Assembly: GCA_002293145.1 (NCBI GenBank)
Contig: DBCO01000010.1
Coordinates: 217,759-281,758, forward strand
Source of the DNA: Akkermansiaceae bacterium UBA956
GTDB lineage: Bacteria > Verrucomicrobiota > Verrucomicrobiia > Verrucomicrobiales > Akkermansiaceae
Direction of reading: 5' to 3'
DNA length: 64,000 bases
Below, piece by piece: positions 3,397 to 64,000 of the stretch; position 1 is the first letter of the stretch, and each line of letters opens with the position of its first letter. The translations under genes were made by a program, and so were the position numbers. A model generated the notes under the pieces. That model had not been told where the DNA came from and searched no databases. It worked only from the letters and a program-made list of their open reading frames with translations.

Positions 3397-4022
3397 GAGT
3401 CTTGGAGAGAGGTAGGAGCTTGGTAAAGTGCGAGGCGATCGAGGTAGGCTTCGAGCGAATCAAAGGGAATCACGCGCGGCAGACTAGGGAGAATTTCGAT
3501 GATCATTTCGCCGAGTTGCGTCGCGCCCTCGGGCTTGCTGGTGCGCACCAATCGATGACGCTTGAATTTGCCTAGCATCGTTTCGAGATGGGTTTTTTCT
3601 GGTGGGTCGATTTTATCAAAAGTGTTGCGAAATTTTTGCCAAACTTCATCGACGGGAAGGATGACTGTCTGGTGAGCATGATTGCTGCGCTCGTCATCCC
3701 AAGCACGCCACAATACTAACAGAAGCAGCGTTTCATCCTTGCTAAACTGCGCCAACAACGCGCAATCTTCACTGCGAGGTTGTGCTTGCAGCAAACAAAA
3801 ATCATCATCGATGATCAAACTCATACCCAGCACCGAGAGGTAATCTTCGAGATGCTTTTGGTAATGATCGCGCACTAACAGAAATTGATCGCGGCCCGAT
3901 GCGGTATCGCCAAGGATCACTCCACGACCTAACAAATCCGCAAGCACCTCACGCAACGAGGCCCGGTCTTCCTCAGGAACCTCCGACCAAAACGACGGCC
4001 AATTTTTATGGGATTCAGACAT
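3393..4022 (-). CDS. jetB: JetB/MksE-like subunit (DUF4194-type)
   Basis: 209-aa acidic ORF between jetA and jetC. The segment LLGRGVILGD...DQFLLVRDHYQKHLEDYLSVLGMSLIIDDDF resembles DUF4194 proteins as I remember them. It is translationally coupled (ATGA) to jetC and lies 14 nt after the jetA stop. Confidence 0.75.
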   Translation of the reverse strand: MSESHKNWPSFWSEVPEEDRASLREVLADLLGRGVILGDTASGRDQFLLVRDHYQKHLEDYLSVLGMSLIIDDDFCLLQAQPRSEDCALLAQFSKDETLLLLVLWRAWDDERSNHAHQTVILPVDEVWQKFRNTFDKIDPPEKTHLETMLGKFKRHRLVRTSKPEGATQLGEMIIEILPSLPRVIPFDSLEAYLDRLALYQAPTSLQDS

Positions 4023-4036
4023 GATGGGGAAATGCT

Positions 4037-5518
4037 TTATTTCTTACGGGTAATGGTGAAACGATCGAGCATCCAGCCGGAGTGTGGATCGCGGAGGATG
4101 GCTTCGGGTTCGAGCCCGAGCGGGCGACTTGGGCTATCGACTTGCCAGGTGATGCTTTTGCCACTGATGCCCACCGCTGTTTCAAAGGCTGCGATGGCTA
4201 ATAGATCGAGCAATTCATCGTCATCACTGGCACGAAAGGCATCGGTGCTGAGTTCGCCTATGGCAGCTGGCAATAATTGCTGCAATAAGCGCGCGGCACG
4301 TTGTGGCGTGAGAGCTAGCCGTTGGCGCTCGCGCAGGCCAGCCATGGTGTCCTCGACGTTTTCCTCGCGATTGATGCCTTGGGAATCGAAGCTCAAGTCG
4401 GCACTGCCCTTGCTCTTGCGAACTCGCGCCAGCGAATCGGTGCCGTAGTAGCATTTCATCTCGGATACCAGTGGTGAAAAATCAGCGGCCTGATCACGAA
4501 GATGCGAGGTCTTTTGTTGTTCGTGCTGCTGATTGATGGCATCGCAGTAATTTTTGACGATCTCAGGCTTACGACCACGCAGTTCAGTTTGATAACGATA
4601 GCGTTGCAGGGAGAGATGATTGAACGAGGCCATGCGCGCATCGATGCTCTCAGCGATCAAGCGAATGCTCGCCAACTTGCGCTCGACATTGCGCAGCATT
4701 TTTTCACTATGATGATAGGCCTCGCTCGGATCGTAACTGTAATGAAGCTGGAGATCCTGGGCGAGTTGCTCACGGACCAGCGGATTATCGCGGTGGTCTG
4801 CCATTTGCAACCGCAGCGCCTGGATCCGCGGCAGCAGTCCACCACGACGCAAGGAATCATAGCAAACCATGTGCTGGCCCACGCCAAATTCCGCATACAG
4901 CAGACGCAAAGTCTCCGCTGGAGTATCGCTGAGACGTTGCTTGCGGTCAAAGATCGCGATGAGTTTTTCCACGCCATGCAACTGAACAATCGCATGCTCC
5001 AGACGCGCCGTGACATCGCTCAAGACAGAACGCATTTGCCCTTCTTGTCCTACTTCTAGCAGAAAAACATCGGTTTTTTCGAGCGTATTGCACACTCCTT
5101 TCAAGGTGTCCGCAAAAGTTTTAAGCTCGGCAATTTCATCCTCTGCGAGATCGCGCAACATCCGCAACAAAGGCCGCAATCCTGGTGAAATCAGCGCGTA
5201 ACGTTCATGCAGACCAAGCTGCTGATCCTCCATCCAACGCGCATCGCAGAGTCGATTGAACAACTGCCCCGCCCGCTGCCGCGCATCCCGCATGTTCGCG
5301 CCCTCATCGTCCTCCAACTTGATGTCAGGATGCGCCGAGATCACTTCGCGGATGATCGCGATCGCATCCGCATGCGGCAAACGCCCGGCCTCACCCGCTT
5401 CCTCCGCCAAACGCTCCGCGCAATCGACATAGATCGCCGAGGACGGACGCGATAGCGGCCGGAAAAACTCCTGCGACACATTCGCCAGCAATTTTCGACT
5501 CAAGGAAGCTTCACTCAT
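4037..5518 (-). CDS. jetA: JetA/MksF-like subunit (DUF3375-type, kleisin-like)
   Basis: The ORF extends to 5560, but the ATG at 5518 (MSEASLSRK...) is the likelier start, giving 493 aa. Size and position ahead of a ~200-aa gene and a ~1100-aa SMC-like gene match JetA/MksF. The assignment rests mostly on operon architecture. Confidence 0.7.
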   Translation of the reverse strand: MSEASLSRKLLANVSQEFFRPLSRPSSAIYVDCAERLAEEAGEAGRLPHADAIAIIREVISAHPDIKLEDDEGANMRDARQRAGQLFNRLCDARWMEDQQLGLHERYALISPGLRPLLRMLRDLAEDEIAELKTFADTLKGVCNTLEKTDVFLLEVGQEGQMRSVLSDVTARLEHAIVQLHGVEKLIAIFDRKQRLSDTPAETLRLLYAEFGVGQHMVCYDSLRRGGLLPRIQALRLQMADHRDNPLVREQLAQDLQLHYSYDPSEAYHHSEKMLRNVERKLASIRLIAESIDARMASFNHLSLQRYRYQTELRGRKPEIVKNYCDAINQQHEQQKTSHLRDQAADFSPLVSEMKCYYGTDSLARVRKSKGSADLSFDSQGINREENVEDTMAGLRERQRLALTPQRAARLLQQLLPAAIGELSTDAFRASDDDELLDLLAIAAFETAVGISGKSITWQVDSPSRPLGLEPEAILRDPHSGWMLDRFTITRKK

Positions 5519-5666
5519 ACTACGGACGCCCACGTTGCGCAGCGGCGGAAAAAATTGCAACCTCTAGTTTTCTTGCCGATTTTCTTTGACATACCAGCAA
5601 CTAGGGGTTGCGCATGACCCCGATTTCCCCTATTGCCGCACCTCACCACCACGAAATCTTCCAATT

Positions 5667-25482: not shown

Positions 25483-26139
25483 TTACGGGGTAGGTTCGGG
25501 CTCGACGAATTCATCGACGGCGCGGAAGTCCACGGCTTTGCTCTGCGGGTTGACGAAGAAGAAAACATACGAGCGAATTTGTTTTTCGACGGGCCAGCGG
25601 CTGCTGCTCAGTGGGCGATCGCCGCCAGCTTCGCGGACACCGAAGCCGACTTCATAGTAACCTTCCGCTTTCGCGCCGGCAGGTCGTAGGGCTTTGCCTT
25701 GGCCGGGTGGCAAAATGAAGGTGGCTTTGCCGACGAAGCCGAGCACAGTTTTATCGCTGTGATTGTAAAAATACACATCGCCTGGGCGGAAGGAGGCATC
25801 TTTTGCGGGGATGACGGTGTGGATGTAGCCGCCTTTCGGGTTGGGCAACAGTAGGATCACAAAGTCGTTGCCATTTTCGGGCAGGATGATTTTGCAGAGT
25901 TCGAGATTTTTCTCAACGGTGTTTAAGGTGAGGGCGCGGGCCGCGACCTTGACCGGCGCGGAGAGGTTATTCGTGGGTAGGGCAAAGGGCGCGCTTTTGG
26001 TTTCTGCAGTGATGAGATTGACTTGACCGATGACGGCGGGTGCGCGCTCGGCTACGAATCGCAGCGAGATGTTTCCTTTTTCCTGGGCAGTGGCGGCGAT
26101 GGTGCCAAGGCAGAACAAGGTAAGTAGATAACGGAGCAT
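25483..26139 (-). CDS. secreted hypothetical protein, partner of giant pseudopilin-like protein (cassette A)
   Basis: 218 aa with Sec signal MLRYLLTLFCLGTIAATAQE. It starts 20 nt after the stop of the 1177-aa gene. It is a distant homologue of ORF 62912-63589, sharing blocks such as ISLRFV/VSFRVT, DFVILLLP/DLLLIFFP and SYVFFFVNP/KFLFAFVSP. Confidence 0.65.
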   Translation of the reverse strand: MLRYLLTLFCLGTIAATAQEKGNISLRFVAERAPAVIGQVNLITAETKSAPFALPTNNLSAPVKVAARALTLNTVEKNLELCKIILPENGNDFVILLLPNPKGGYIHTVIPAKDASFRPGDVYFYNHSDKTVLGFVGKATFILPPGQGKALRPAGAKAEGYYEVGFGVREAGGDRPLSSSRWPVEKQIRSYVFFFVNPQSKAVDFRAVDEFVEPEPTP

Positions 26140-26159: not shown

Positions 26160-29100
26160 TTAGATTTCATCTGCTTGCAACCAGCGCAATGAGACCAGTT
26201 GGCAGCTGCGACCGAAGGCCTTGTTGGTGTTTGTCAACGGGGCCAGCGTGCTGGCGTTGGTGATGACAACATCGGCGGCATTTGTCGAATCAATATAATT
26301 GGCACTGCGCTCGACGACGGCTTCGCACCAGGCGCGGGCGAGGACTTTTCCTGCGGCATCGACGGATTCACCATAGGCACGGATGATGAAGCTATCAGAG
26401 CGAGTGGTAAGGATGGGTGCGATGGGCGTGAGAATATCGGCCTGCTTGACGATGCCGGGAATGCCGTAGGAGATGGGGGCTTCCTCTGCCTCGGGGAAGG
26501 GGAAAACATTGGAGGCAGCCGATTTGCGGTTGTTGTATGCGCCATTGACTCCGAGTTGGGAGTCATCGAGGGCACTTTGGATGGCACCGCTACGAGCGAG
26601 CTTTTTGTCGCTGCCAGGGCGACGGTTGACGAAGTCGGCTAAGCTGAGAAATGGTCCGCGCTTGCGTACTTCGCGCACGATGCCTTGAGCGAGTCGGCCG
26701 ATTTCATCATCACTGAGGCGGCGTTGGCCGATCCATTGAATCGGGCTGCGTGAGTTAACGCCGGCGCCAGTTTCGGTCGCTGCATTGACGGGAGCGATCA
26801 GTCCTAGCACGGCTGTGGTGCCAGACTCGACGGCTGTGACGGACTCGCGGCCATTGGCATCGCGGGTCACGATAGTGCGTTCGCGCAGGGCAGCGAGCTG
26901 GGCTTTCCAGGCCTCGACGGAGGTGGAGTTGACATTGAACATGCCATCGACACGCATGTAGGCGGCGATGCTGTTGATGCCGATGGTGGTAGGCGAGGGT
27001 CTTGCATTGCTGCCGGAGATGAAGCGCCCGGCAAGAGTGGTGGGATCGGCGATGTTAGGCGCGGGCATGTAGCGGACACAGGGCAGTGATGACGTTTGTT
27101 TGAGGAATTCTTCACACATGGTTTTCATGCCTTTTTTCTCGCTGCTGCTGAAGTTATTGTTGGTGCTGTAATTGGCGAGTCCGGAGAGGAACCAGGTGTC
27201 CCAGAGTTCGCGATTGGCGAGGTAGGAGTGGTCGGCAATGGGGCGGCCCTCTGAGAGAGAGCCACTAATGGCTGCGGGTGCGAGGATCGGTGGGGCAAGC
27301 GAATTGCCAATGGCATGGCTGATCTGCGGCAGCAAGCAATCACGCGCATTGATGGTGGCGTAGCTGGGGGTGGGGCTGAGTTGGATGAAGCCATTGGCCA
27401 TGGAATGCTGGAATGCGGCGAGGGAGACAATGGGCTCGCGGGGGATGGAGTGGGTGCAGACAAAGTTGGAGCCGTCTGCCGCGGTCATGCCGCCACCGAA
27501 GTAACCTTGCCCGTTGGTGCTGGCCTCGATGCTACGATTTTTCCAACTGGACAGTGGCTCGACTTGGATCTCAAAGGGTAAGGTTTGACGCTCGCGCGCG
27601 GAAAGATCATAGAAGTCGTTTTGGAATGATTTCGGGTTGAAGCGGCTGAGGGCGCTGCTGCCCAATGTGCTGCTATTTTCGGTTTTAGCATTGAAGGCAA
27701 AAATCATGATGGGAGACTTGCTGCCGATGAGTTGGGAGCCACTGAGGGTGCGTCCGGAGATCACGGGAAAAACAGTGGGGAAGTTATTGGCATACAGGCG
27801 GTTGCCTTTTTTCTCGTCGCCTGCAGGGGCTTCCGTATCAGCACGGGTTCGCCCTATGACTAAGCGCTTGCGTCCGAAATCATAGTCGATCCCCATGTTT
27901 CCATAGCCTAAGCTGCCACCACTGCTGGTTCGGTCAAAGCCGCTGTAGATCTCGTGGTGAGTCATCGAGAAATGGCGGGTGTGTTCATCTACGCCCGTGA
28001 GTGAATTACCCGTGCCGTTGCGTTTGCCCGCTGTTAGGTTGTTGGGGCGGCACTCGAAGGTAATTGTCGATTGTGGTGTTACGACAAGGGTGGAGCCAGC
28101 AGCTCCGTCGGCAGTCCTTAGTGGAGTGCGGATGCCACCGCCGAAGTTGAAACCGACTTTTGCGTCGATGTCACGTGCGGTTCTCGCGACTGTGCCGTTG
28201 GTTTGCGAAAACTTGAGAACCTCACCCGGTTTCATGACAATTTGGGAGCCAGTATTGCCGATGCGCAGCGTGAAGTAGTTGCGGTCGCCACCACTTTCTA
28301 CAGATGCCACCATGGGATAGCGGACGTTATTGACCCAAAAGTCATAAGGGACTTGCCAGTATTTCACCGACATAAACGAGCTATTGGGAATGACCAGTGG
28401 CACATCGTAGGGATTCCACAAGGTGACTACGGGGTCGCAAACGAGGTGCAGGACGGTGGACTGGGCACCATTGACGGTGGCGGGGAATGCCTGAAGTGAG
28501 AAGATCATCTGGAAGCTGATGATGCTGGGTTGTTTGTAGTAGAACCATTGGTCTGAGCCCTCACTGGGACCAGGAGTGCGGAGGTGGGCTGTGCCGCTGG
28601 ACAATGAGCCCCCTGAGGTGAAGGTAGCGGAGCCACTGCGTGTGAGTTTTTCGCTCAGGGCATAGTAGGAGCCCAATTCACCAAGGTTGATGCCGTAGCT
28701 CTCGGTGCCTGTGCCTTTTCCGGCGACGGCGGTGCCACTGCTATTGATGGAATAAAGCGGGGAGGTGACAAAGTTCGCGGGGGTGGTGGCGGAGGCGTTG
28801 ACGAGCTGGAGTTGTTGCGAAAGGTCTTTGCGAAAACCGCCGGCGCGAACGTTGGTGAGGAGTCCGCTGGAGGAGGGGGTTATGTCGTGGAAGAGTTGGC
28901 GTGATTGATCAGAGTTTTTGCTGATGAGGTCGCTCTGGTTCCAGGAAATGAGCTTGGATATGGACTCGTCTCCATTTCGTAATGCTTCAAATGGCGTGGC
29001 TCCGCCCTCGATGGCTGCCAATTGCACAGCGGAGCGGGGAGCGGCTTGGGACTTTTGCCGCGTGGCACCGAGGGTGCTGCTTTCGGTGAATTTTGGGCTC

Positions 29101-29693
29101 ACCAATGTGGCTTTTACGCTTTGGTCGCCTACCCACCAAGCGAGTCGTGCGTCTTTACCATTGCTCTGGCGTAAGGTGGTGACGGGAGCATAGACAAAGT
29201 CTCTAGGATCATCGCCCACGGTGCCATTACCGACGAGTTCAATGCGCTGGTTTTCAGGGAGCGCATTGCTAGCGTAGTTGAGGTCATCGAGATCATCGGA
29301 GAGACCGGACGTCATCCAGCCCAAGAAATTGGGGGCGGGGCGATTGGTATCAGTGGAGAGCCATGAACGATAAACACCCATCCAGTTTTTCTGGCTGGAG
29401 GCCGCAGAGCTCTCTTCGCCGCTGGCTCCCTTAGTCAGTTGATCAGCCTCGGCGGTGATGCGCTGATCGGGGCCAAGGTTTTTCTGGATTTGACCAATGG
29501 CCATCATCAGTGCCATACGGGCATTGGCGCGAGCTTCCTGCTGGGCGAGGCCTTGGCTGGAAGAGCGCAGGGTGACGGATGAAAGGGATAGCACACCGAT
29601 CGCCACCATGGTCAAGAGGACCAATAATGAGATCGTAATGATTAGTGTGAATCCTTTCTTATGCGAAGAGGATTTTGGAAAATGGGTTGTCAT
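26160..29693 (-). CDS. giant (1177 aa) GspK/PilX-like pseudopilin-type protein, cassette A
   Basis: Prepilin-like N-terminus KKG|FTLIITISLLVLLTMVAIGVL without Glu at +5. PilX_N-like helix ARANARMALMMAIGQIQ. GspK-like C-terminus (FNVNSTS; RGPFLSLADFVNRR; RSDSFIIRAYGE...AVVER). A ~750-aa Gly/Ser/Thr/Asn-rich insertion lies between the two ends. Confidence 0.75.
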   Translation of the reverse strand: MTTHFPKSSSHKKGFTLIITISLLVLLTMVAIGVLSLSSVTLRSSSQGLAQQEARANARMALMMAIGQIQKNLGPDQRITAEADQLTKGASGEESSAASSQKNWMGVYRSWLSTDTNRPAPNFLGWMTSGLSDDLDDLNYASNALPENQRIELVGNGTVGDDPRDFVYAPVTTLRQSNGKDARLAWWVGDQSVKATLVSPKFTESSTLGATRQKSQAAPRSAVQLAAIEGGATPFEALRNGDESISKLISWNQSDLISKNSDQSRQLFHDITPSSSGLLTNVRAGGFRKDLSQQLQLVNASATTPANFVTSPLYSINSSGTAVAGKGTGTESYGINLGELGSYYALSEKLTRSGSATFTSGGSLSSGTAHLRTPGPSEGSDQWFYYKQPSIISFQMIFSLQAFPATVNGAQSTVLHLVCDPVVTLWNPYDVPLVIPNSSFMSVKYWQVPYDFWVNNVRYPMVASVESGGDRNYFTLRIGNTGSQIVMKPGEVLKFSQTNGTVARTARDIDAKVGFNFGGGIRTPLRTADGAAGSTLVVTPQSTITFECRPNNLTAGKRNGTGNSLTGVDEHTRHFSMTHHEIYSGFDRTSSGGSLGYGNMGIDYDFGRKRLVIGRTRADTEAPAGDEKKGNRLYANNFPTVFPVISGRTLSGSQLIGSKSPIMIFAFNAKTENSSTLGSSALSRFNPKSFQNDFYDLSARERQTLPFEIQVEPLSSWKNRSIEASTNGQGYFGGGMTAADGSNFVCTHSIPREPIVSLAAFQHSMANGFIQLSPTPSYATINARDCLLPQISHAIGNSLAPPILAPAAISGSLSEGRPIADHSYLANRELWDTWFLSGLANYSTNNNFSSSEKKGMKTMCEEFLKQTSSLPCVRYMPAPNIADPTTLAGRFISGSNARPSPTTIGINSIAAYMRVDGMFNVNSTSVEAWKAQLAALRERTIVTRDANGRESVTAVESGTTAVLGLIAPVNAATETGAGVNSRSPIQWIGQRRLSDDEIGRLAQGIVREVRKRGPFLSLADFVNRRPGSDKKLARSGAIQSALDDSQLGVNGAYNNRKSAASNVFPFPEAEEAPISYGIPGIVKQADILTPIAPILTTRSDSFIIRAYGESVDAAGKVLARAWCEAVVERSANYIDSTNAADVVITNASTLAPLTNTNKAFGRSCQLVSLRWLQADEI

Positions 29694-38176: not shown

Positions 38177-38300
38177 ATGTTTGTTCCTTTCATGTCAGGC
38201 ATCACTTACCGTGTTGCTCCTCTAGCATGGCAAAGCTTTCCACTGTCAATTGGTTGTCAGATGGAAAAACCAACAACATAAACCACAACACAATACACAT

Positions 38301-38582
38301 ATGGCCGCAAAAAAAGCCGCAAAGAAAGCCGCAGTGAAAAAAGCTGCACCAGCCAAAAAAGCACCAGCCAAAAAAGCCGCTGCTAAGAAAGCTGCACCAG
38401 TGAAGAAAGCTGTTGCCAAGAAGGCACCAGCGAAAAAAGCAGCACCTGCTAAGAAGGCAGCACCAGCGAAAAAAGCTGCACCTGCTAAGAAAGCTGCACC
38501 TGCTAAGAAAGCAGCACCAGCCAAAAAAGCAGCACCAGCGAAAAAAGCTGCACCTGCTAAGAAGACAGCTAAGAAAAACTAA
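38301..38582 (+). CDS. histone H1-like Lys/Ala-repeat DNA-binding protein (Hc1/Hc2- or AlgP-tail-like)
   Basis: 93 aa from the ATG at 38301. The sequence MAAKKAAKKAAVKKAAPAKKAPAKK... contains about 8 consecutive AAPAKK units and ends TAKKN. The antisense ORFs are Phe/Cys/Ala-rich artefacts. Confidence 0.75.
   Translation: MAAKKAAKKAAVKKAAPAKKAPAKKAAAKKAAPVKKAVAKKAPAKKAAPAKKAAPAKKAAPAKKAAPAKKAAPAKKAAPAKKAAPAKKTAKKN
38305..38575 (+). repeat. coding tandem repeat, 18-nt period (AAPAKK units)
   Basis: Alternating gcagcaccagcgaaaaaa and gctgcacctgctaagaaa units. All are in frame within the H1-like CDS. Confidence 0.85.
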
Positions 38583-43619: not shown

Positions 43620-43638
43620 AATGGGGTCAGTCCTTGGA
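43620..43638 (-). repeat. 19-bp repeat copy 1 (reverse orientation): TCCAAGGACTGACCCCATT
   Basis: Read directly from the sequence. It overlaps the last codons and stop (ISKD*) of the Y1/HUH gene. Confidence 0.9.
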
Positions 43639-44640
43639 TATTAGTATTTTTTCATAGTGCCTGATCAATTTGATTCCTTCTTTACTCTCTTGATAGAATT
43701 TTGCGATTTTGCTCATACCCGCAGGATGACCCATTGCTAGGCGCTTGGCAATCCATTCGTTGCTCACTGCACAGTGTTTTTTTACCATCGCTGCGAGTAG
43801 GGCTTTCTGCCAAACTCCTTTGCGCTGCTGCGCTAGAAATTCTCGATCCACATTGTATGCCATTTCTACTCCTAACAATTGAATCACATGCTCAGCATCA
43901 GCCTCTTTGTGTGCTTTGACTACTGGTCCTGACACAGAACCTTTTTTGATCAACTTTCCTGCCACGTCATTGATCTGATTCACTAATTGATCGCGAAATC
44001 CATCACTCCCCAAATACCAACCCTTTCTCAACTCGCGCATCGCCTCATCACTCAAATCACCGCCATTTTCTTCGGCTCGGCGTTGGAGATAAGCGACATA
44101 GGCCTTGCGTCCCCGATGCCGGAGATCGAGATGAAATGCGTCGAGCACGCGCTCCGTATGTAGCCATTTCGGTCCTTTTCCACTCTCATACGCTGGCAAA
44201 CTACTCCATGCGTAGGATGTCAATGGTTCACCTGTGAGCAATTTCGCGCGGGCCGGATTGAGGTGAATGTAGTCTGCCGTCACGCGAAAGTAACTACCAT
44301 CGGCTGCACGTTCGCCCGAGACGGGAATGGATTTATAGCGCCCTTGGAACACGTGACCACGACGTTGATGCCGTGCATTCCACCCTTGGCTGAACGTTCC
44401 CATCAAATAACGCATTCCATCCACAAGATTGGGTTCAGGAGTTTCCAAGAGCAGGTGAAAATGATTCGACATCAGGACATAGGCATGCACTTTCCAGCCA
44501 CAGCGCTCACAAACTTCCGCAAGTCGGAAGAAAAAGCCCTTGGCATCTTCTTCCTCGAGAAATATTCGTTTCCCACCATCTCCACGTGCCATCACATGAT
44601 ACGTAGCACCAGCATATTCAAAGCGTAACGGTCGAGCCAT
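43627..44640 (-). CDS. IS200-like / REP-associated (RAYT-like) Y1 HUH transposase-family protein with C-terminal HTH region
   Basis: HUH motif in VLMSNHFHLLLETP. Catalytic Tyr context TADYIHLNPARAKL. N-terminus RFEYAGATYHVMARG. The ~150-aa C-terminal extension (..KALLAAMVKKHCAVSNEWIAKRLAMGHPAGMSKI..) looks like a DnaA-C-type HTH. Confidence 0.8.
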   Translation of the reverse strand: MARPLRFEYAGATYHVMARGDGGKRIFLEEEDAKGFFFRLAEVCERCGWKVHAYVLMSNHFHLLLETPEPNLVDGMRYLMGTFSQGWNARHQRRGHVFQGRYKSIPVSGERAADGSYFRVTADYIHLNPARAKLLTGEPLTSYAWSSLPAYESGKGPKWLHTERVLDAFHLDLRHRGRKAYVAYLQRRAEENGGDLSDEAMRELRKGWYLGSDGFRDQLVNQINDVAGKLIKKGSVSGPVVKAHKEADAEHVIQLLGVEMAYNVDREFLAQQRKGVWQKALLAAMVKKHCAVSNEWIAKRLAMGHPAGMSKIAKFYQESKEGIKLIRHYEKILISKD

Positions 44641-49767: not shown

Positions 49768-49819
49768 CTCACTCAGGTTTTTCAGATTATTTGTTTTTGT
49801 TTTTCAATGTTTTTGCAAG

Positions 49820-49949: not shown

Positions 49950-49972
49950 GAAAAACTTTCCCTTTCCGCTTG
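49950..49972 (+). repeat. 23-bp perfect direct repeat, copy 1 (GAAAAACTTTCCCTTTCCGCTTG)
   Basis: Identical to 53030-53052. It lies 183 nt downstream of the tRNA-Asp 3' end. Confidence 0.9.
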
Positions 49973-50285: not shown

Positions 50286-50304
50286 TCCAAGGACTGACCC
50301 CATT
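50286..50304 (+). repeat. 19-bp repeat copy 3 (solo): TCCAAGGACTGACCCCATT
   Basis: The match to copy 2 extends to AAATGC(T/G)CATTTCCAAGGACTGACCCCATT, 30 nt with 1 mismatch. It sits inside the AT-rich islet, just before the 227-aa gene. Confidence 0.9.
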
Positions 50305-50339
50305 TATGTTCATACTATACCTTTAGGAGAGACGCCGCC

Positions 50340-51023: not shown

Positions 51024-51032
51024 TAGGTTGTT

Positions 51033-51410: not shown

Positions 51411-51470
51411 TGGAGTGCTAAACGGCTAATCTTTTCAGGTCTTAATGCAACGATTTTCTCGAAGTGACAT

Positions 51471-51908: not shown

Positions 51909-52016
51909 TTATTCTAAAGCTCCGGTTAAGATATAACATGTTGATTTTGCTTTGTTTTTTTATAATGGAACTGTCTTTGAAAACCTCAGTCGCTCACCTC
52001 ACAATAACCTGCTACG

Positions 52017-55615: not shown

Positions 55616-58600
55616 TTGCGCGGATCTGACAGCCTTGTCTGCGTGCCTGATGGTGAACTGAGATCGGAGGAAGAGCCCCTATGGAAACGGCGAACATTTG
55701 CGTTTTTGCGGATGATTCCCGGCGTCGGGCGTCTGCGTTTTTTGCGTCCGGGCACTGATGCCTTGTTAGGTCCTCTGATTGATGTTTTCGCGGCTTTTGC
55801 CATTGCCGACCAAAGCGTGGATGATGATGAAGCTGACCTCATTCTTGATCTGTTGCGAGCGGCATTTCCTGAGGTGGACCACGGTTGGTTGGCCAGGCGC
55901 TTGCAGCGTTCCGTGCGCTCGCCGCGATCCTTGGAAGCGCTAGCAGCGGAACTGCACGAGCGGTTGGACGATGTCGGAAAGTTGGCATTGGCCTTCCAGC
56001 TTTGGGCATTGGTGGATGCGGCGGGCCGATCAGCGCCTCTGCGCGAAACTTTTGACGGCTTCATGCGTCGCCTCGGTCGCCCTGATTACGGTCAGGAAAT
56101 TCTGCGAGAAATGGCAGAGGATGATGAAATGGTGCTTACTGGGAATTTTGAGCGCGTGACATTTGGCGATAGCAAAGCGGATGTCATTTTGCCGCCGCAA
56201 GCTGCGGAACACCGCTTCCGCGTCTATCGCGTCGGTGATTTGATGATGCTGCGCAACACCGGTGTGATGCCTGTATGGGTGCGTGGGCGCTCGTTAGAAA
56301 GCGGGAGTTTTTTGCGGATGCGCGAGGGGCAAGCTCTGGTCGTGCCGGGCTGGACCTTACTGCACGAGGATTTGGTGCATTTCCTCAATGTAAAAAAAAC
56401 CGGGCTGATGCCGCGGATGCACATCGCAGCGAGCGACAAGGGCATCACTGTGGAGCGCGCGCGCACGCGCCAAAGTCTGGCAGTGTTGCGATTCGGCCTT
56501 CAGGTGGAGGTGGAGGCTTACCGCGCTTGTGATTTGCAAGTTGGCCAGGCGCAAGGACTGGATGTGGGGCAGGTGGTGAAATGCAATCACCACACGCGCT
56601 TGATCGATCCCGATGGGGCCACCGTCGATCTTGAAGCTCTGCGCAAGCAAGCCATTAAGGCTGGCGGGAGATTTCGCATTGACAACAAGCGTAAGCGCTT
56701 TCGCGTGTCGAATGATCCTTCAGCACTTGGAAAAGGCGATTTGTTGATTTCGGCAGGCTTGGCGCCGCGTGTGGTATTAGAAATGCGCTATGTGCCTGAG
56801 GAGTCTGCGGGCTATGTGGAAGTTATCGCTGCTGATGGTCCTGTGACTGTGGGCGAGCATGCGCTGCGTGGTGTGACGCGCCTTGATGAAGGGGCGCTCA
56901 TTCGGATTTCTCCTCGTCAAGCTCTGCGTTGTCGATTTTCTGAAAGCTTGATTGATGAAGAGCGACAGGTGATCGAGTCGTTAAAAATCGAGGATCTAAT
57001 CCACGACTTTACGCCGCAGGTGCGTGCTCTCGACAACTTGAGCTTCATGGTGAAGCGTGGCGAAATGATGTGTATTATTGGCCCGAGTGGTTCGGGTAAA
57101 TCGACCTTACTCGCGGCGCTCTCGGGGCAGCTCGAACCAACGCGTGGTCATGTTCGTCTTAATGGCACCTCGCTCTATCGAAATCGTGCGGAGCTCGTGC
57201 GCTTGATTGCGCGGATGGCACAAGAGGAGGCATTGTTTCCTTTGTTAACCGTACGTGAGCATCTGCGTCATGCGGCATCGATCCGCCGACCAGTTCAATC
57301 TGCGGCGGACCGTGAGCGGCGCATCGACCTAGTGCTCGCCGATTTGGGTCTGCAAGGTTTATCGCACCGCCTCGTGGGTGCTGCGGGAGAGAAAGCCTTG
57401 TCGGGCGGGGAAAGATCGCGTTTGAACTTGGGCTTGGATTTGCTCAGTGCGGCAGAAGTTTTTTTGTTTGATGAGCCGATCTCTGGTTTATCATCGAAGG
57501 ATTCAGAGCATGTAGCAGAAACGCTGCGGGCCATGTCACGGGATAAAATTGTGATCTGTTCGCTGCATCGGCCTGGGGCTCAGGTGCTGCGCTTGTTCGA
57601 TAAAGTTTTGTTGTTAGACTCGGGCGGACGCATGGCTTACTATGGATCGCCGCACGAGATGATGGAGTATTTTCGTGTCGCTTGCGTCGAGCTCAGCATC
57701 GCGCATCCATCATTGGTTGGTCGCTCGCCATTGGGCGCGGATTTTGTTTTCGATATATTAGAAACGCCGCTCAATACCATTGGTGGTGGGCAAAATCCTT
57801 TGGCAGCACGACGTTTCCCTCCGACCTTTTGGCAAGAGCGCTTTGAGAGTGAGACCTTGATCGAGTCGCTGCAACGAGTGGGCGATGTGCCATCGCGGTT
57901 GAGTGGTGGTGAGAAATCTGCATTGGATGGACCGTTTCCCAGGCGGCGGCGGCGGCGCGTGCGTGAGATTTTTTCGGTGTTTACAACGCATTTTCAGCGC
58001 TCGTTGCTTTCGAAAGTGCGGGCGCGTGGCACGCTGTATTCAACTCTGCTGGAGGCTCCCATTCTTGCGGCCTTGATTGCCTTCACACTGCGCTCATCAC
58101 CTGCGGGTAAGTATGAATTCGACACGGCTTTGCACATGCCTGCATATCTCTTCCTCAGCGTCACGGTGGCGATGTTTTTGGGGCTAACAAATTCTGCGAC
58201 CGAGATTTTGCGCGATCGTGCGGTGATTCGGCGCGAGCGCAATTGCTATCCAGGTGGCGACTTGTATGTGGCGGCAAAATGGCTGGCCTTAGCTCTGGTG
58301 GCGATGTTGCAGTGCGGCGCGTATCTTGCCGTGGCGCATCCGTTATTAGAAATCCGCGGCATGTTTTTGGAGCATTGGTTGTGGATGACCTTGACGGCAT
58401 GGACGGGGACATCTCTGGCCTTATTGGTCTCGGCCTTGGTCAAAACGGAACGCGCGGCCTTGACCTCGGTGCCACTTTTGTTAGTGCCGCAGATGCTTCT
58501 TGCTGGCGCGTTGGTGCCGTTTAAGGAGATGAATCGCGCGATGTTTGACGATGGTTCAATCAATCGCGAGCGTGGCGGCACTCCTGTTCCCGCTCAAATC

Positions 58601-59227
58601 ATGCCGCTGCGTTATGCATATGAGGCTATGGTGGTGGCGCAGGCGACGCGCAATCCTTTTGAAAAGGAACGCATGCGTATTCAGCGGAGGATTGATGATC
58701 TCGCGGCAACGCGTGAGCTGACCAAAGAAAGTGCCGAGAGATTGGAGATATTGAAGTTATCCTTGACCAAGTTGTTAGGCGCGGGGGCGAGTCATGCATC
58801 TGATGGACAGATCATTGCGGAGGAAATATCTTATCTTGCCCGCAATGGTACGCGTGAGCAATGTGAAGCACTAGAAGTCTGGCCCGAGGGAGAAGATCCG
58901 CGCAAGGTAAAATCGATTGCTGATTTTTTTGTGAATTCAAGGATTGATTTGATGACACGCGAGGCGGAAACACTGCGTACGGATTATCGCAATCAAAAAG
59001 CGCGGTCGATTTTCCTCGCCTTGCGACAGCCGATGTTTTGGGCGGACAATAATGAGCCAGTGGAAGTCGAGAAAAGCGGCCCCGGTGTGGTCGAGGCCGT
59101 GCCCGAGCGCAAGCAAGAGTGGATGGAAACAGACCGGCGCAATGGCTTTGCGCTGGGTCTGTTGATCTTCCTCTGCCCCGGCCTAACGGGATGGATCTTG
59201 CGACGTCAAAATCGCAATGTGAAGTGA
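55616..59227 (+). CDS. TerB-like + two FHA-like domains + ABC ATPase + ABC-2 (ABCG-type) permease fusion protein
   Basis: TerB-like FAIADQSVDDDEADLILDLLRAAF. FHA-like VTFGDSKADVILPP..HRFRVYRVGDLMMLRNTG..VWVRGR and a second at RFRVSNDPS...VTVGEHAL. NBD motifs: Walker A GPSGSGKST, signature LSGGERSRL, Walker B FLFDEPISGLS, and SLHRP. Six or more TM segments follow, then a ~230-aa tail with a final TM. The start is uncertain (TTG 55616 or ATG 55712). Confidence 0.85.
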   Translation: MRGSDSLVCVPDGELRSEEEPLWKRRTFAFLRMIPGVGRLRFLRPGTDALLGPLIDVFAAFAIADQSVDDDEADLILDLLRAAFPEVDHGWLARRLQRSVRSPRSLEALAAELHERLDDVGKLALAFQLWALVDAAGRSAPLRETFDGFMRRLGRPDYGQEILREMAEDDEMVLTGNFERVTFGDSKADVILPPQAAEHRFRVYRVGDLMMLRNTGVMPVWVRGRSLESGSFLRMREGQALVVPGWTLLHEDLVHFLNVKKTGLMPRMHIAASDKGITVERARTRQSLAVLRFGLQVEVEAYRACDLQVGQAQGLDVGQVVKCNHHTRLIDPDGATVDLEALRKQAIKAGGRFRIDNKRKRFRVSNDPSALGKGDLLISAGLAPRVVLEMRYVPEESAGYVEVIAADGPVTVGEHALRGVTRLDEGALIRISPRQALRCRFSESLIDEERQVIESLKIEDLIHDFTPQVRALDNLSFMVKRGEMMCIIGPSGSGKSTLLAALSGQLEPTRGHVRLNGTSLYRNRAELVRLIARMAQEEALFPLLTVREHLRHAASIRRPVQSAADRERRIDLVLADLGLQGLSHRLVGAAGEKALSGGERSRLNLGLDLLSAAEVFLFDEPISGLSSKDSEHVAETLRAMSRDKIVICSLHRPGAQVLRLFDKVLLLDSGGRMAYYGSPHEMMEYFRVACVELSIAHPSLVGRSPLGADFVFDILETPLNTIGGGQNPLAARRFPPTFWQERFESETLIESLQRVGDVPSRLSGGEKSALDGPFPRRRRRRVREIFSVFTTHFQRSLLSKVRARGTLYSTLLEAPILAALIAFTLRSSPAGKYEFDTALHMPAYLFLSVTVAMFLGLTNSATEILRDRAVIRRERNCYPGGDLYVAAKWLALALVAMLQCGAYLAVAHPLLEIRGMFLEHWLWMTLTAWTGTSLALLVSALVKTERAALTSVPLLLVPQMLLAGALVPFKEMNRAMFDDGSINRERGGTPVPAQIMPLRYAYEAMVVAQATRNPFEKERMRIQRRIDDLAATRELTKESAERLEILKLSLTKLLGAGASHASDGQIIAEEISYLARNGTREQCEALEVWPEGEDPRKVKSIADFFVNSRIDLMTREAETLRTDYRNQKARSIFLALRQPMFWADNNEPVEVEKSGPGVVEAVPERKQEWMETDRRNGFALGLLIFLCPGLTGWILRRQNRNVK

Positions 59228-59360
59228 AGACGCGCTTCCCATTCGTCCGCATTTTGCATGATGGCAAACTTTTAGATTGAAGCGCAATACATTGCGATTA
59301 CATTGAGTGTGTCTGATGTCGCAAAGGTCAGAGTAAACTCTGTGCTAATCCCCAAATGCA

Positions 59361-62300
59361 ATGAACCCTACTTTTGTTAACTTCCTCGGCGATAACCCAG
59401 GAGCCCGTGGTCGATTTCCTCGTGATTTTACGCAGGCTCGTGGCTTTACTCTGATTGTCACGATCTCGTTGTTGGTGCTGCTAACTTTGATCGTGGTAGG
59501 CCTTCTTTCTTTGTCTGCCGTGAGTTTGCGCGCCAGTTCTCATGGGGCTTCTATCTCGATAGCACGAGCGAATGCGCGGCTCTCCGTGATGATGGCATTG
59601 GGTGAGTTGCAAAACACAATGGGTTCAGATCGCAACATCACTGCGCCCGCGAGCATTCTCGATAAAAATCCAGAAACAGTGCAAGCAGATGGAGTAAAAC
59701 ACCCGCGTTACTCGGGAGTATGGCAAGCTCGTGCTGAAACCATCGATGCGATGCCAGATTATTCTCGTGAGCCATTTTTTCGTGAATGGTTGGTGTCTCA
59801 TCGGGATCAATCAGCGCTTCAGAAACTCGATTTTGCGGAAAATGGCACGCTGCCTGATCCAGTAACCATTTACGAAATTAAAACCTCGGCAAACGATACG
59901 GAGCAAGTTCAGGCGGGGAAAGTTCCCACTGACAATGGAGCTCTGGCATGGTATGTGATCGACGAAAATTGCAAAGCTTCGATCAATCGGCGAGATGAGC
60001 GTGAGCGCGCAGGGGATGAAAACATTGCCGATCTCCTCGCAGGTTATGCAACACCTGGAACTCAAGGTATTACAGCATTGGATGAGTTTGAAGAATTTCC
60101 TGCAAATACCACCACAAGTGATAAATTCTACTCCATCAATTCTCTATCGCTCGCAGAAAAAGGAGAAAAGTATTTTCAATCACACGCGCACCTCACGCCT
60201 TATGCAGAAAGCGTTTTAGCCAATGTCACGACGGGCTCATTGCGTAAGGATTTGAGTTTGTATCTTGAGCGGACGGATTTGAGTTGGCAAGCTGGCTGGG
60301 GTTTGGCTGGGGGGCAATCGGGACTGCCGCGGAGTCCGCTTGGTCCTAACAAGTTGATTTCACTCAGCGCTCCGAACCAATACGACGTTCTATCGTGGAA
60401 AAATCTCTACCATTGGTCTCAAATGCATCGCCAGCAACTGCGCTCGGGGGCTTTGCAGTTTGCGGCCATGGATAATCAAGCTGCAGTTCATCAGCTCACA
60501 AATCCATCATGGAACAGCTCCGTCACCCGCATTGCCCCCGTAATGATGCGTATGCAGATGGTTCTCTCCTATAGCATGCGGAGAACGGATGCGAGTGCTC
60601 CACCTGATGCGAATGGCGAATCCGAATATGAGCTATTGATGCATGCGTATCCAGTCGTCACGCTGTGGAATCCTTTCAATGTTTCAATGTTTGTAAGAGA
60701 GTGGAGTTGTTTTCTTCACACACTACCCTTGGAGCATACGATATTCAAAAATGATGCGAAAGTTACGATGACGGAAGAAGGTTCTAAAAATGGAACATTC
60801 AATTGGGGTTGGCCTCGGGGTAACATGACGATGCGCGTGGGAGGAAGTACTGGTCCATCGGTCACGTTAGCTCCTGGTGAATCAAAATTGCTCACCTATA
60901 AAACCGCGCAAGCGGGTGGGTTCAATGCTCACGATATGACTGAGCAATTCAATGCATGGTTGCCTAGTGCCGCAGGGGAGCCGCGTATCGCTGGGAAAAT
61001 TCGGGCAAAATCGAGTGATTCCATTTCTGTGCGCACGGAGATGTCGCGATGGGAGACAAGTGGCACTTCGTATTCAGGGGCTGACTTTCAGACAACTTTT
61101 GATTTCCGTTGTGAGCCGCGTGCCGTGCATGCAGGACATGATCAAAACTTTCTCAAATTTATGTTTTGTGGCCAAGTGGGATGGCGGCATGAGGCAGGAA
61201 ATCCCAGCCCCATCACAGTCTCCGAAAGAAATTATCCCAAGAAAACTGTCGCTGCATTGTTGAACACGGCGTCACCCTTTATCAACCTGGATGTCCGATA
61301 CAAGACACTCGATGAGCAACAGTTGCCTAACAAAAGCTGGCTGCATAATATTCCCATGCATCCATATGCTGCGGCAACTTCCACGAGTAAGCATGCCAGT
61401 AAAGGTGTCGATGCCAAAACCCCGTTCTTTTCGCATCCCTATGCCATTAACTTCGAGCAGATCAATGGCATTGCAGGTGTCGTGCAAAATCGTCCGTTCA
61501 TTGGTTTGAGCAATCGCCCCGGTGGCGAGCCACGCATCGCCGCGGTTTCCGTTCCGCTTGCGCCTCTTACGTCGTTGGCACAGTTGCAAAATTTACCACT
61601 TTTGCCCATTGAAGCGCTGAATTGGAGTGGACATTATTTGCAAAATCAAGCGATCGGTAACTCATACGCGATGCCGGGGCTAGCACCAACTGCCATCAAA
61701 CAGACATCGTTTCCCTTTTACTTGGGGCAATATTTTGCGTGGCAAGGTGGCGATATTGCAGGGAATACGTACCAAGCAAAAAATGCATTCAATAACGCGG
61801 ACTATACCATCAGTGCGGCGCCTGCATCACTCGTAGATCGGAGCTATGTGGCGAATCATTTGCTCTTCGATGAATACTTTTTCTCCTCGATGTCTGCGCA
61901 AACGGGGCCGATCTTTAAAAAATACGGGAAGGAGAGAACTTTGAAGGTTGTGGTCGAAGATTTCTACAATAACAACAGGCGTCTTCCCATTGCGGCGTAT
62001 CGCCCCTATCTCAGCGGTAAAGAAGTTACCCCTGAACGTCTCGTGCCACTATTGACTTCGAGAGCGGGGTCAACGGCTACCGCCCACCTCATTGCTGCCA
62101 GCCGCATGATGGTAGAAGGAGGCTTTAACATCAATTCCACATCTGAGCCTGCCTGGCGCGCCATGCTTGCTGCGGCGCATTTAAAACGTCCTGTAACGAT
62201 GAACGGTAATACTCTGAAGGCGGAAAAGGCTTCAAAATTTCTCGTCAATCGACACTCCGCACCATTAGCTGGCGCTGCGGGCAATGGCTCGGGTACCGCA

Positions 62301-62897
62301 GAAGAATCCAATCGTTGGTTAGGATATCGCGAACTTACGGAAGAAGAAATGGAACAACTCGCCGAAGCCATCGTTCGCCAAGTCAAACTCCGCGGCCCAT
62401 TCCGCTCGCTCGGCGAGTTCGTCAATCGACGTCGTTCTTCCGATACAGAGATGGCGCGCTACGGAGCTCTTCAAGCTGCTCTCGAAGACCCCAAGGTGGA
62501 TATTAATAAAAATTATCGTGGCTCTGGGAATGAAATTTCTTCGGCAAATATTGCCGGCACCAACTACAAGTTTCCTGCTGCTGCGCTGGGCTCAAAGTTT
62601 CAAGGCACCCCAGCCTACATTTCTCAAGCGGACATTTTGACTCCCATGGCTCCCATCATCCAAGCCCGTTCTGATACCTTTGTCATTCGCGGCTATGGTG
62701 AGGCAAAAGCGAAGAATGGAGCCATCATTGCGCGCGCCAGTTGCGAGGCCGTGGTTCAGCGAGTCCCCGATTTTGTTGACTCGCTAGATGCTGCTGATGT
62801 TGCAGAAAATCTTCTCAAATCACCGATCAATCGAGTATTCGGCCGACGTTTTGTTGTAAAATCTTTCCGCTGGCTTGCCGATAGCAGCGAAATCTAA
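59361..62897 (+). CDS. giant (1178 aa) GspK/PilX-like pseudopilin-type protein, cassette B
   Basis: ARG|FTLIVTISLLVLLTLIVVGLL, ARANARLSVMMALGELQ, central PVVTLWNPFNV, and the C-terminal motifs FNINSTSEPAW, RGPFRSLGEFVNRRR and RSDTFVIRGYGE...AVVQR. It is collinear with ORF 26160-29693 along its whole length. Confidence 0.75.
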   Translation: MNPTFVNFLGDNPGARGRFPRDFTQARGFTLIVTISLLVLLTLIVVGLLSLSAVSLRASSHGASISIARANARLSVMMALGELQNTMGSDRNITAPASILDKNPETVQADGVKHPRYSGVWQARAETIDAMPDYSREPFFREWLVSHRDQSALQKLDFAENGTLPDPVTIYEIKTSANDTEQVQAGKVPTDNGALAWYVIDENCKASINRRDERERAGDENIADLLAGYATPGTQGITALDEFEEFPANTTTSDKFYSINSLSLAEKGEKYFQSHAHLTPYAESVLANVTTGSLRKDLSLYLERTDLSWQAGWGLAGGQSGLPRSPLGPNKLISLSAPNQYDVLSWKNLYHWSQMHRQQLRSGALQFAAMDNQAAVHQLTNPSWNSSVTRIAPVMMRMQMVLSYSMRRTDASAPPDANGESEYELLMHAYPVVTLWNPFNVSMFVREWSCFLHTLPLEHTIFKNDAKVTMTEEGSKNGTFNWGWPRGNMTMRVGGSTGPSVTLAPGESKLLTYKTAQAGGFNAHDMTEQFNAWLPSAAGEPRIAGKIRAKSSDSISVRTEMSRWETSGTSYSGADFQTTFDFRCEPRAVHAGHDQNFLKFMFCGQVGWRHEAGNPSPITVSERNYPKKTVAALLNTASPFINLDVRYKTLDEQQLPNKSWLHNIPMHPYAAATSTSKHASKGVDAKTPFFSHPYAINFEQINGIAGVVQNRPFIGLSNRPGGEPRIAAVSVPLAPLTSLAQLQNLPLLPIEALNWSGHYLQNQAIGNSYAMPGLAPTAIKQTSFPFYLGQYFAWQGGDIAGNTYQAKNAFNNADYTISAAPASLVDRSYVANHLLFDEYFFSSMSAQTGPIFKKYGKERTLKVVVEDFYNNNRRLPIAAYRPYLSGKEVTPERLVPLLTSRAGSTATAHLIAASRMMVEGGFNINSTSEPAWRAMLAAAHLKRPVTMNGNTLKAEKASKFLVNRHSAPLAGAAGNGSGTAEESNRWLGYRELTEEEMEQLAEAIVRQVKLRGPFRSLGEFVNRRRSSDTEMARYGALQAALEDPKVDINKNYRGSGNEISSANIAGTNYKFPAAALGSKFQGTPAYISQADILTPMAPIIQARSDTFVIRGYGEAKAKNGAIIARASCEAVVQRVPDFVDSLDAADVAENLLKSPINRVFGRRFVVKSFRWLADSSEI

Positions 62898-62911
62898 TCT
62901 CATCATTTTCT

Positions 62912-63589
62912 ATGTTAAAAATGCTACCACTTTACCAACTCATCGCGTCGCTGTGCATTGCTATGGTGACACCAGCCCTGTCACAAGCCGATGCCGCGAA
63001 ATCGCCGAAAGTTTCGTTCCGCGTCACTCGCTTCGATCCTGGTGATGGCACCTCACCCAAGTTCCGCGTGGGTACGGAGCAAAAAGAATGCGAGGTGCCT
63101 TTGACCTCCATCGAAGGACCATTCTCGGCAACCTTGCGCGATGGCACGTACTTGGATTTTTGGGGGGCTGCTGCGGACAATCCTGAAATCTCGGTGGCGA
63201 TCGCGGCAAACGAACGCAAAGATCTGTTGTTGATTTTTTTTCCCGATGGGAAAACGTTTCGTTTGATGAAAGTGGTGACATCTGCTGATCGCATGCAAGG
63301 CGGGTACCAGATGATCATCAATACCACACCTGATGAGATCGGAGTGAAACTCGGGACGGCGGAGCCAGTGATCATTTCCTCGGGGAAGAGTGGAACTCTC
63401 AAGACTCCAACAGCGGCCAAAAATGCATCGATACCCGTAGTGGTCAACGTGAAAAAAGCGGGGAAGTGGACACTGGTGAGCACCGAAGATTGGCCCCATG
63501 AGCCAACCGTGCGAAAGTTCTTATTTGCGTTTGTTTCACCGCGCACCAAGCATTTGATGTTTCATACGGTCTCGGAGATGGTGGAATAG
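62912..63589 (+). CDS. secreted hypothetical protein, partner of giant pseudopilin-like protein (cassette B)
   Basis: 225 aa with signal peptide LIASLCIAMVTPALSQA. It begins 14 nt after the giant gene and is a distant homologue of ORF 25483-26139. Confidence 0.65.
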   Translation: MLKMLPLYQLIASLCIAMVTPALSQADAAKSPKVSFRVTRFDPGDGTSPKFRVGTEQKECEVPLTSIEGPFSATLRDGTYLDFWGAAADNPEISVAIAANERKDLLLIFFPDGKTFRLMKVVTSADRMQGGYQMIINTTPDEIGVKLGTAEPVIISSGKSGTLKTPTAAKNASIPVVVNVKKAGKWTLVSTEDWPHEPTVRKFLFAFVSPRTKHLMFHTVSEMVE

Positions 63590-63629
63590 TTGCAGAGCTC
63601 CGATTTCCCGTGACTGGCTCGCTTTTTTC

Positions 63630-63657
63630 TTGACGACATGAATACAGTGTCTAATTT
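63630..63657 (+). promoter_or_regulatory. candidate sigma-70-type promoter for the downstream LamG-like gene
   Basis: TTGACG (63630-63635), a 16-nt spacer, then TAATTT (63652-63657). A T-run (GCTTTTTTCTT) lies immediately upstream. Confidence 0.3.
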
Positions 63658-63727
63658 CGATAAACCAACTGTTGCAAATTGCTGTTGGTGAAACCCTAGT
63701 GAAAAAATCCCAAACCTCGATACGATT

Positions 63728-64000
63728 ATGTTAAAGTCATCATTGTACTTAAAATCATTGACCCTTGCCGCGTTCTTGCTTGGCGCGGGATCATCCGCAA
63801 AAGCGACTCTCGTGGGCCATTGGCTCAACGGCGATACCAATCTAACAGATGCCTCTGGTTTTACTACTGCTGGCACTCACGATGGGGTCGCAGTCGGGCC
63901 GAATGCTGGTTTGTTAGCTTACAGTTCCGATGTTCCCACGGGCTTCACGGGGCAATCACTCAGCCTCGTTGGCAATGTAGCTGTGAGTATTGCAAACAGC
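63728..64000 (+). CDS. partial CDS (5' end only): secreted protein with LamG/concanavalin-like N-terminal pattern
   Basis: My own translation from the ATG at 63728 gives MLKSSLYLKSLTLAAFLLGAGSSAKATLVGHWLNGDTNLTDASGFTTAGTHDGVAVG..., open to the window end (91 codons). The HW-x-(L/F)-x-G-D...D-x-SG pattern is common at the start of LamG-type domains of large PVC surface proteins. Confidence 0.45.
   Translation, partial: MLKSSLYLKSLTLAAFLLGAGSSAKATLVGHWLNGDTNLTDASGFTTAGTHDGVAVGPNAGLLAYSSDVPTGFTGQSLSLVGNVAVSIANS

Follow-up and report, generated by a model that had tools for sequence, protein, structure and literature searches.

A two-gene module retained in two diverged copies in an Akkermansiaceae genome encodes giant proteins with a prepilin-like N-terminus

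We analyzed a 64,000-nucleotide stretch (hereafter the window) of contig DBCO01000010.1 of Akkermansiaceae bacterium UBA956, a member of the Verrucomicrobiota, which carries two copies of a two-gene cassette. In cassette B, on the plus strand, the open reading frame (ORF) list gives a gene for a 1178-residue protein (giant B; 59361..62897) and, after a gap of 14 nt (62898–62911), a gene for a 225-residue secreted protein (partner B; 62912..63589). Cassette A lies on the minus strand and consists of a 1177-residue paralogue belonging to another deep clade (giant A; 26160..29693) and, 20 nt downstream of it, a 218-residue signal-peptide protein (partner A; 25483..26139). We found that the two cassettes are paralogous, that giant and partner are conserved as a pair and diverge together, that the giants begin with a prepilin-like N-terminus without Glu5 leading into a long α1 helix, and that conservation along the giants follows a distinct regional pattern. 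The reading that we favor, and to which we give about an even chance, is that the cassettes encode alternative giant tip subunits of the GspK/PilK class, each with a dedicated two-domain immunoglobulin-like (Ig-like) partner.

An earlier note, made from the DNA by eye, had described cassette B as a second copy of the cassette A module, collinear with it at around one third identity and too diverged to be a recent duplication. The two-ORF layout of both cassettes is as described there, with the coordinates and lengths given and no break in either giant gene, and each of the six motif pairs quoted in the note is found in the translations of both giants. Giants A and B form one collinear BLASTP alignment over residues 19–1172 with an E value of 6e-93, far beyond chance, and the similarity runs end to end rather than being confined to low-complexity or transmembrane segments. 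The figure of one third is slightly generous: BLASTP gives 28% identity, and the family alignment gives 25%. The protein following giant B after 14 nt does have an N-terminal signal-peptide-like segment and is homologous to partner A (26% identity over the C-terminal 137 residues; E 1e-11). The strongest conservation between A and B, at 50–54% identity in the family alignment, is in the C-terminal module of the giants. At the DNA level, megablast of cassette A against cassette B finds nothing, and blastn returns only two short, collinear matches of 67–68% identity in the most conserved C-terminal part. Because DNA similarity is nearly nil, the view that there are no shared nucleotide repeats and no recent duplication holds. 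Both giant genes are intact ORFs rather than pseudogenes, and each retains all 32 residues that are invariant in the family.

To place the cassettes in a wider context, relatives of the giant were collected by a pattern scan with tblastn confirmation, using one genome per species. This gave at least 585 loci with a giant relative in species-representative genomes. Nearly all of the best 80 loci come from Verrucomicrobiales (Akkermansiaceae, Luteolibacter, Haloferula, Roseibacillus, Rubritalea, and Prosthecobacter) or Opitutales (Coraliomargarita, Thalassobacterium, and Opitutaceae). Profile hidden Markov models of giant and partner were then run against all ORFs of 81 fetched loci, and 74 of them have a partner immediately after the giant. 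Among the seven exceptions, two have a divergent signal-peptide ORF of ~235 residues at that position and one is at a contig edge. The giant stop and partner start codons often overlap or are closely spaced. Carriers of the module in culture include Roseibacillus persicicus KCTC 12988 (L011), Rubritalea tangerina KCTC 12907 (L041), Luteolibacter algae KCTC 22040 (L064), and Haloferula sp. BvORR071 (L052). Two or three loci each come from many metagenome-assembled genomes (MAGs), and tandem or convergent arrays of the module occur at loci L010, L037, L041, L047, L057, L061, and L065. The module is part of a large, unnamed family that is specific to Verrucomicrobiota. Literature searches on Verru_Chthon and on verrucomicrobial minor pilins or GspK found no paper on the giant family, and the nearest relatives described so far are minor pilins of the GspK class and Verru_Chthon cassette protein A, which is itself uncharacterised.

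At 35% identity, the giants of the fetched loci form at least four deep clades; at 45%, they split into 22 groups. Giant B groups with L001, L002, L004, L007, L045, and L047 (48–61% identity), and giant A with L008, L037b, L052, L056, L065a, and L075 (45–50% identity). The A/B paralogy is ancient, since each of the two lies in a deep clade of its own that has orthologues in other genera. Three types of module, the A and B types and one other, are found on separate contigs of the MAG CAMCYK01; the occurrence of both A and B there, together with the cross-genus orthologues, indicates that the duplication predates the divergence of the genera. For each giant of the window, the loci that supply its six closest giant relatives are exactly those that supply the six closest relatives of its partner, and pairwise identities of giants and partners are correlated (Pearson 0.92, Spearman 0.48). 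The two genes have remained paired ever since the duplication. The proposal of an old, maintained two-gene unit is therefore borne out by the number of loci, the pairing, the deep clades, and the co-divergence.

We built an AlphaFold2 model of giant B with a 79-sequence alignment. The model is compact and confident, with a mean predicted local distance difference test score (pLDDT) of 91.2 and a predicted template modeling score (pTM) of 0.90. It contains one unbroken 59-residue helix (residues 29–87), a mainly β body, helices across residues 979–1041, and three long terminal strands (residues 1106–1116, 1122–1138, and 1162–1172). By motif, model, and hhalign, the class III (prepilin-type) signal junction R-G/F-T-L-I-V (the slash marks the junction) and the continuous α1 helix cover residues 28–87 (59442..59621, plus strand). 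The predicted body extends over residues 88–1000 (59622..62360, plus strand), is clade-specific, and has no known domain that we found. The C-terminal module occupies residues 1001–1178 (62361..62897, plus strand), with a helical RGPFRSLGEFVNRR region ahead of the three strands.

The divergence of the inserted body can be compared with that of the termini by measuring identity to giant B in 52 sequences of its orthologue clade and in 14 sequences from other clades. The α1 helix (residues 28–87) is 56% identical within the orthologue clade and 60% identical to the other clades, and the C-terminal strands (residues 1101–1178) give 57% and 50%, so that the termini are nearly equally conserved within and between clades (ratio of between- to within-clade conservation 1.08 for the helix and 0.87 for the strands). 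In contrast, identity falls from 48% to 18% in residues 301–600, from 58% to 26% in residues 601–900, and from 74% to 44% in residues 1001–1100; over the body as a whole it is 48–58% among orthologues and 18–30% to other clades. The comparison of A with B alone gives the same regional pattern. The α1 helix and terminal strands are under a constraint common to all paralogues, while conservation of the body is limited to the clade, which is what would be expected if a common docking module carries clade-specific heads. The suggestion of the earlier note that the retained copies might display different modules fits this region-wise divergence.

The pilin-like nature of the giant was not recognised in that first reading. 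The leader junctions are ...FTQARG/FTLIVTISLLVLLTLIVVGLL in giant B and ...SSHKKG/FTLIITISLLVLLTMVAIGVL in giant A. All homologues scanned have a basic leader followed by the motif [KR]-G-F-[AT]-L-[IV]-[VI]-T and ~20 hydrophobic residues; Gly28 is invariant in the family, and position +5 of the predicted mature protein is Val, Ile, or Thr in all giants listed and never Glu. Among type IV filament subunits, a missing Glu5 sets the GspK/PilK/PilX cap subunits apart from other pilins. The top NCBIfam match of both giants is TIGR02600 (Verru_Chthon cassette protein A), restricted to positions 1–61 of the 1296 positions of the model and far below its cut-off of 332.3 bits (giant B: residues 28–88, E 3e-5, 22 bits; giant A: residues 14–72, E 6e-8, 31 bits). 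Giant A also has a faint match to the NCBIfam GspK model. In a set of 20 diverse family members, 18 match TIGR02600 with their N-terminal 60 residues, below the cut-off (best E 6.1e-8), and 13 match the NCBIfam GspK model NF037980 below threshold (best E 1.3e-5). A Pfam scan of the same 20 gave one T2SSK match (E 0.036) and seven PilX_N matches (E 0.056 or worse). No match of the giants or partners of either cassette reached threshold in Pfam, NCBIfam, or PADLOC, and no relative turned up in PDB sequence searches, whether a single giant protein or the 79-sequence profile served as the query. The giants fall short of the model cut-offs for strict membership in the T2SSK family.

Against a GspK profile of 36 sequences (E. 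coli K-12 GspK and 35 relatives), hhalign aligns the giant family with a probability of 91.9% and an E value of 7e-7 over 65 N-terminal residues only; the match to the single E. coli GspK is weak (E 0.0015) and also N-terminal only. Residues 88–300 of the giant give no significant match to the profile. When the N- and C-terminal parts of the giant are joined, the alignment spans the whole GspK profile, weakly and in collinear order, tentatively pairing GPFRSLxEFVNRR with SELRxV of GspK and RSDTFxIR with the GspK SxyFxL strand; a separate weak pairing puts DENxKAxIN against the GspK DxQxxFNLN motif. These candidate motif pairings are collinear yet individually weak. In Foldseek, GspK of the GspK–I–J complex (3ci0_K) ranks third among 350,542 PDB chains with a non-significant E value of 0.47, a placement of the model that is suggestive given the prior hypothesis and is not proof.

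Partner B is predicted to have a Sec-type signal peptide followed by two Ig-like β-sandwich domains (AlphaFold2 model, pLDDT 89.7). Its best match among PDB structures is the extracellular two-Ig domain of PepT1/PepT2 (E 5e-7, TM-score ~0.55–0.62). A HMMER search with the partner profile against 1.84 billion representative proteins found 527 clusters (at 50% identity) with E ≤1e-3. The best 150 listed of these 527 are up to ~310 residues long, mostly 200–280, with some fragments, and none is fused to another protein.

We suggest the following mechanism. The giant of ~1,180 residues would be inserted in the inner membrane via its prepilin-type signal, be cut after the invariant Gly by a prepilin peptidase, and occupy the tip of a type IV filament, either a type IV pilus or a type II secretion system (T2SS)-like pseudopilus, whose machinery would be encoded elsewhere in the genome. 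The pilin-like docking module that the giants share would consist of the α1 helix and the C-terminal β strands, and the clade-specific body of ~1,000 residues would be displayed as a functional module for adhesion or ligand binding. The partner, exported by Sec, most likely binds its own giant, and its role may be that of a chaperone or adaptor in the periplasm or of a co-subunit at the tip. With different cassettes, a single genome would then be supplied with alternative tips. We infer the cleavage of the giant, its incorporation into a filament, its location at the tip, and the role of the partner. A broader proposal, which we put forward tentatively and hold to be somewhat improbable as a whole, is that Verrucomicrobiota possess a previously undescribed multi-copy system of interchangeable giant type IV filament tips, in which a GspK/PilK-like cap pilin carries a novel-fold body of ~1,000 residues and a co-evolving Ig-like partner, all encoded away from the machinery, so that one apparatus could be re-tipped with many heads.

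Several results weigh against such tip subunits and agree better with a different view, in which the giant has no relation to type IV filaments and is instead a signal-anchored (type II) protein of the inner membrane whose large body lies in the periplasm. Here the resemblance to GspK and to Verru_Chthon protein A would amount to a basic leader and a hydrophobic helix, and the partner would serve an envelope complex as a binding subunit in the periplasm. All significant profile matches do lie within the hydrophobic N-terminus; the significant similarity to GspK in particular is limited to those 65 residues, a hydrophobic helix whose composition inflates scores. The C-terminal 200–280 residues give a probability below 3% against the GspK profile, neither window giant matches Pfam T2SSK (PF03934, PF21687), and NF037980 matches only faintly (12 bits; cut-off 130). 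Foldseek with the full giant B model finds nothing significant among the PDB chains (best E 0.19), and the PepT1/PepT2 match of the modeled partner reflects a generic Ig-like fold and gives no functional clue. Pilin and pilus genes were not found nearby: there is no other prepilin-like ORF within ~6 kb of 80 related loci or in the window, no pilus or secretion machinery gene was seen among the window ORFs that were read by eye and the ten that were Pfam-scanned, and clustering of neighbors of at least 150 residues around 78 related loci revealed no universal third gene.

Nevertheless, we consider the signal-anchor explanation unlikely, at roughly one chance in four, for it accounts poorly for several features of the giants. 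The Gly-Phe junction does not vary, and its spacing is exactly that of a prepilin. The unbroken 59-residue helix of the AlphaFold2 model has the length of a pilin α1 rather than that of a transmembrane helix with a linker, and the soluble half of this helix (ARANARLAL...GELQ) is among the best conserved parts of the protein across clades. The collinear order of the weak GspK pairings and the rank of GspK in Foldseek point in the same direction.

Sulfatase genes occur within ~6 kb in 21 of ~78 related loci, and the L001 module is surrounded by glycoside hydrolases. The weak top Foldseek matches include β-sandwich domains of the glycoside hydrolase families GH2 and GH3, and a LamG/PA14 protein follows cassette B. 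These observations would suit a secreted or surface pair that processes or binds carbohydrates and is tied to polysaccharide-utilisation genes, with the N-terminus serving for export only. The sulfatase enrichment is modest, since sulfatases are very abundant in the host genomes. Moreover, the Foldseek matches are non-significant (E 0.19 or worse, TM-score below 0.05 relative to the query), the Pfam and NCBIfam scans detected no catalytic family, and both cassettes of the window lie amid unrelated genes. A carbohydrate-related pair is therefore improbable in our judgment.

The giants could also be ordinary TIGR02600 members, that is, the large subunit of a four-gene A/B/C/D pseudopilin cassette. 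It is in favor of this assignment that TIGR02600 is the top NCBIfam match of both giants and matches 18 of the 20 family members scanned, that a homologue cluster (P0096, from Luteolibacter arcticus) carries this name in UniRef, and that size and phylum are similar. However, the 22–31 bits obtained are far under the cut-off and involve only the N-terminal 61 model positions, which refutes strict membership. No adjoining prepilin-type B, C, or D genes were found in the 80 related loci or in the window, and the conserved neighbor is instead the Ig-like partner of 220 residues. We regard this assignment as very improbable. Finally, cassette B might have been a recent duplicate, a pseudogene, or mobile-element cargo, as the lower G+C content at third codon positions (GC3) of giant B relative to giant A and neighboring genes (0.55–0.66) could hint, but the two weak matches in the DNA comparison, the divergence of the giants, the intact ORFs with their 32 invariant residues, and the B-type orthologues at 48–61% identity in other genera, each with a matching partner, rule this out almost completely.

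The GC3 of giant B is 0.48, compared with 0.55–0.67 for giant A, partner A, and five other sampled genes of the window, and may reflect a different codon-usage history of cassette B. Giant B has the same sequence as B9S37_00245, a hypothetical protein from the MAG Verrucomicrobiia bacterium Tous-C3TDCM (contig NEUM01000003.1, 340 kb), and the protein is present on 23 contigs read, with the same neighbors in the three places shown. A promoter and terminator scan of positions 59000–64000 returned sites no more numerous than in shuffled sequence.

The two cassettes are transcribed away from each other and lie ~29.7 kb apart, as the earlier note had it. We see no significance in their bracketing of positions 29.7–59.4 kb, also remarked on there: the genes in between are housekeeping genes, other genomes do not have the cassettes linked, and the geometry looks incidental. 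From translations read by eye, the intervening 30 kb appears to encode DeoC, Mrp/ApbC, MsrB, MTA phosphorylase, a GluQ-tRNA synthetase-like protein, QueF, and HtrA; FabD, also located there, is backed by an Acyl_transf_1 domain in a precomputed gene table. The Pfam-scanned flanks of the cassettes are unrelated to them (DUF1549/DUF1553, ThuA, DUF7133, MatE, APH kinase, and ABC transporter).

Directly upstream of cassette B, an ORF at 55616..59227 (plus strand) encodes a 1203-residue fusion of a ~450-residue N-terminal region without a Pfam match, an ABC ATPase, and an ABC-2 permease. Downstream, 139 nt after partner B, starts a 1554-residue signal-peptide protein (63728..64000, plus strand) that runs past the window end (L084:14368-19032). 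It has Laminin_G_3, faint PA14, and DUF5018-like matches and visible internal repeats, and is probably outside the unit, because it is not conserved beside the module in cassette A or L001. Around the related loci, a 671-residue ORF lies upstream of the module in seven cases and a response-regulator-like ORF occurs in six, with both at L029; the two are presumably a histidine-kinase/response-regulator pair.

Elsewhere in the window, three consecutive genes with matches to the Wadjet anti-plasmid system occupy 76..5560 on the minus strand, with JetA at 4037..5560 (E 6e-10), JetB at 3393..4022 (E 7e-16), and JetC at 76..3396 (E 4e-134); JetD would fall before the window start. An island at ~49700–52000 has a G+C content of 32–33%, compared with ~52% for the window, and contains three small ORFs, one of them with a Rhodanese domain match; it could be a foreign insertion. 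The 110-residue ORF at 38250..38582 (plus strand) consists almost wholly of (A/P)AKKAA repeats, like histone H1 or HC2, with a mirror-image repetitive ORF on the opposite strand. At 43627..44640 (minus strand) lies a 337-residue ORF whose N-terminal part, as we read it, resembles REP-associated/IS200-like Y1 transposases.

This abundant family comprises at least 585 loci, its partners form 527 clusters at 50% identity, and neither Pfam nor NCBIfam has an entry for it. Defining it would improve the annotation of many Verrucomicrobiota genomes, in which its members are now called "hypothetical protein". With its confident giant model (pTM 0.90) that lacks a PDB neighbor, the family is also a sizeable piece of structural dark matter, in a phylum of environmental importance. 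Should the giants prove to be cap pilins, no GspK/PilK-class subunit known so far would come near them in size, and they would be a natural case of a tip adhesin and a cap pilin in one chain. Such a one-chain tip would bear on the model in which a C-terminal strand licenses assembly of the tip complex (PMC13533445).

Among known systems, Verru_Chthon cassette protein A of Verrucomicrobium and Chthoniobacter shares with the giants the phylum, a large size, and a similar stretch of 60 N-terminal residues. However, nothing past the N-terminus aligns, and the giant has another conserved partner gene. By definition, a Verru_Chthon A protein is accompanied by the neighboring cassette proteins B, C, and D, whose N-termini are of the prepilin type.

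The giants also resemble the minor pilins and pseudopilins GspK, XcpX, and PilK (PilX). They have in common a prepilin-type leader ending in Gly, a hydrophobic N-terminal half of α1 without Glu5, and a long α1 helix. As with the GspK class, the giant would be the largest subunit, with extra material inserted in a pilin fold and β strands at the extreme C-terminus, and the weak motifs DExxKxxIN, GPFxSLxEF, and SDTFxIR are collinear with those of GspK. The giants differ from this class in their size, ~1,180 residues compared with ~330 for GspK, and in a body of ~1,000 residues in place of an α-domain of ~100–150. They also differ in their genetic context: the giant gene is not encoded with GspI/J/H-like pilins or with machinery, is paired with a gene for a secreted Ig-like protein of 220 residues, and occurs in many paralogous copies per genome.

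The large tip proteins TadG/CpaL, MshQ, and PilY1/PilC resemble the giants in concept, as each combines a pilin-like sheet closed by a C-terminal strand with a functional middle region, but we detected no similarity to them in sequence or domains. PilY1 and MshQ have Sec signals and donate their strand in trans to a separate PilK (PMC13533445), whereas the giants carry a pilin-like start and a large body in one chain. The N-terminus of the giants is prepilin-like and not of the Sec type found in PilY1/PilC, and a Pfam-wide scan at E up to 1 found no PilY1/PilC β-propeller in them. The giants have no vWA, TadE, or TadG Pfam matches either, so that only an architectural analogy with TadG/CpaL holds. 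In GspK and in the 600-residue CpaL of the Tad system, the pilin sheet is completed by the protein's own C-terminal strand (PMC13533445). In CpaL, a pilin-like N-terminal domain precedes a middle region of ~470 residues, which is dispensable for assembly, indicating that large middle regions can be inserted in such tip subunits (PMC13533445). CpaL thus has the same architecture as the one that we propose for the giants, which are twice its size.

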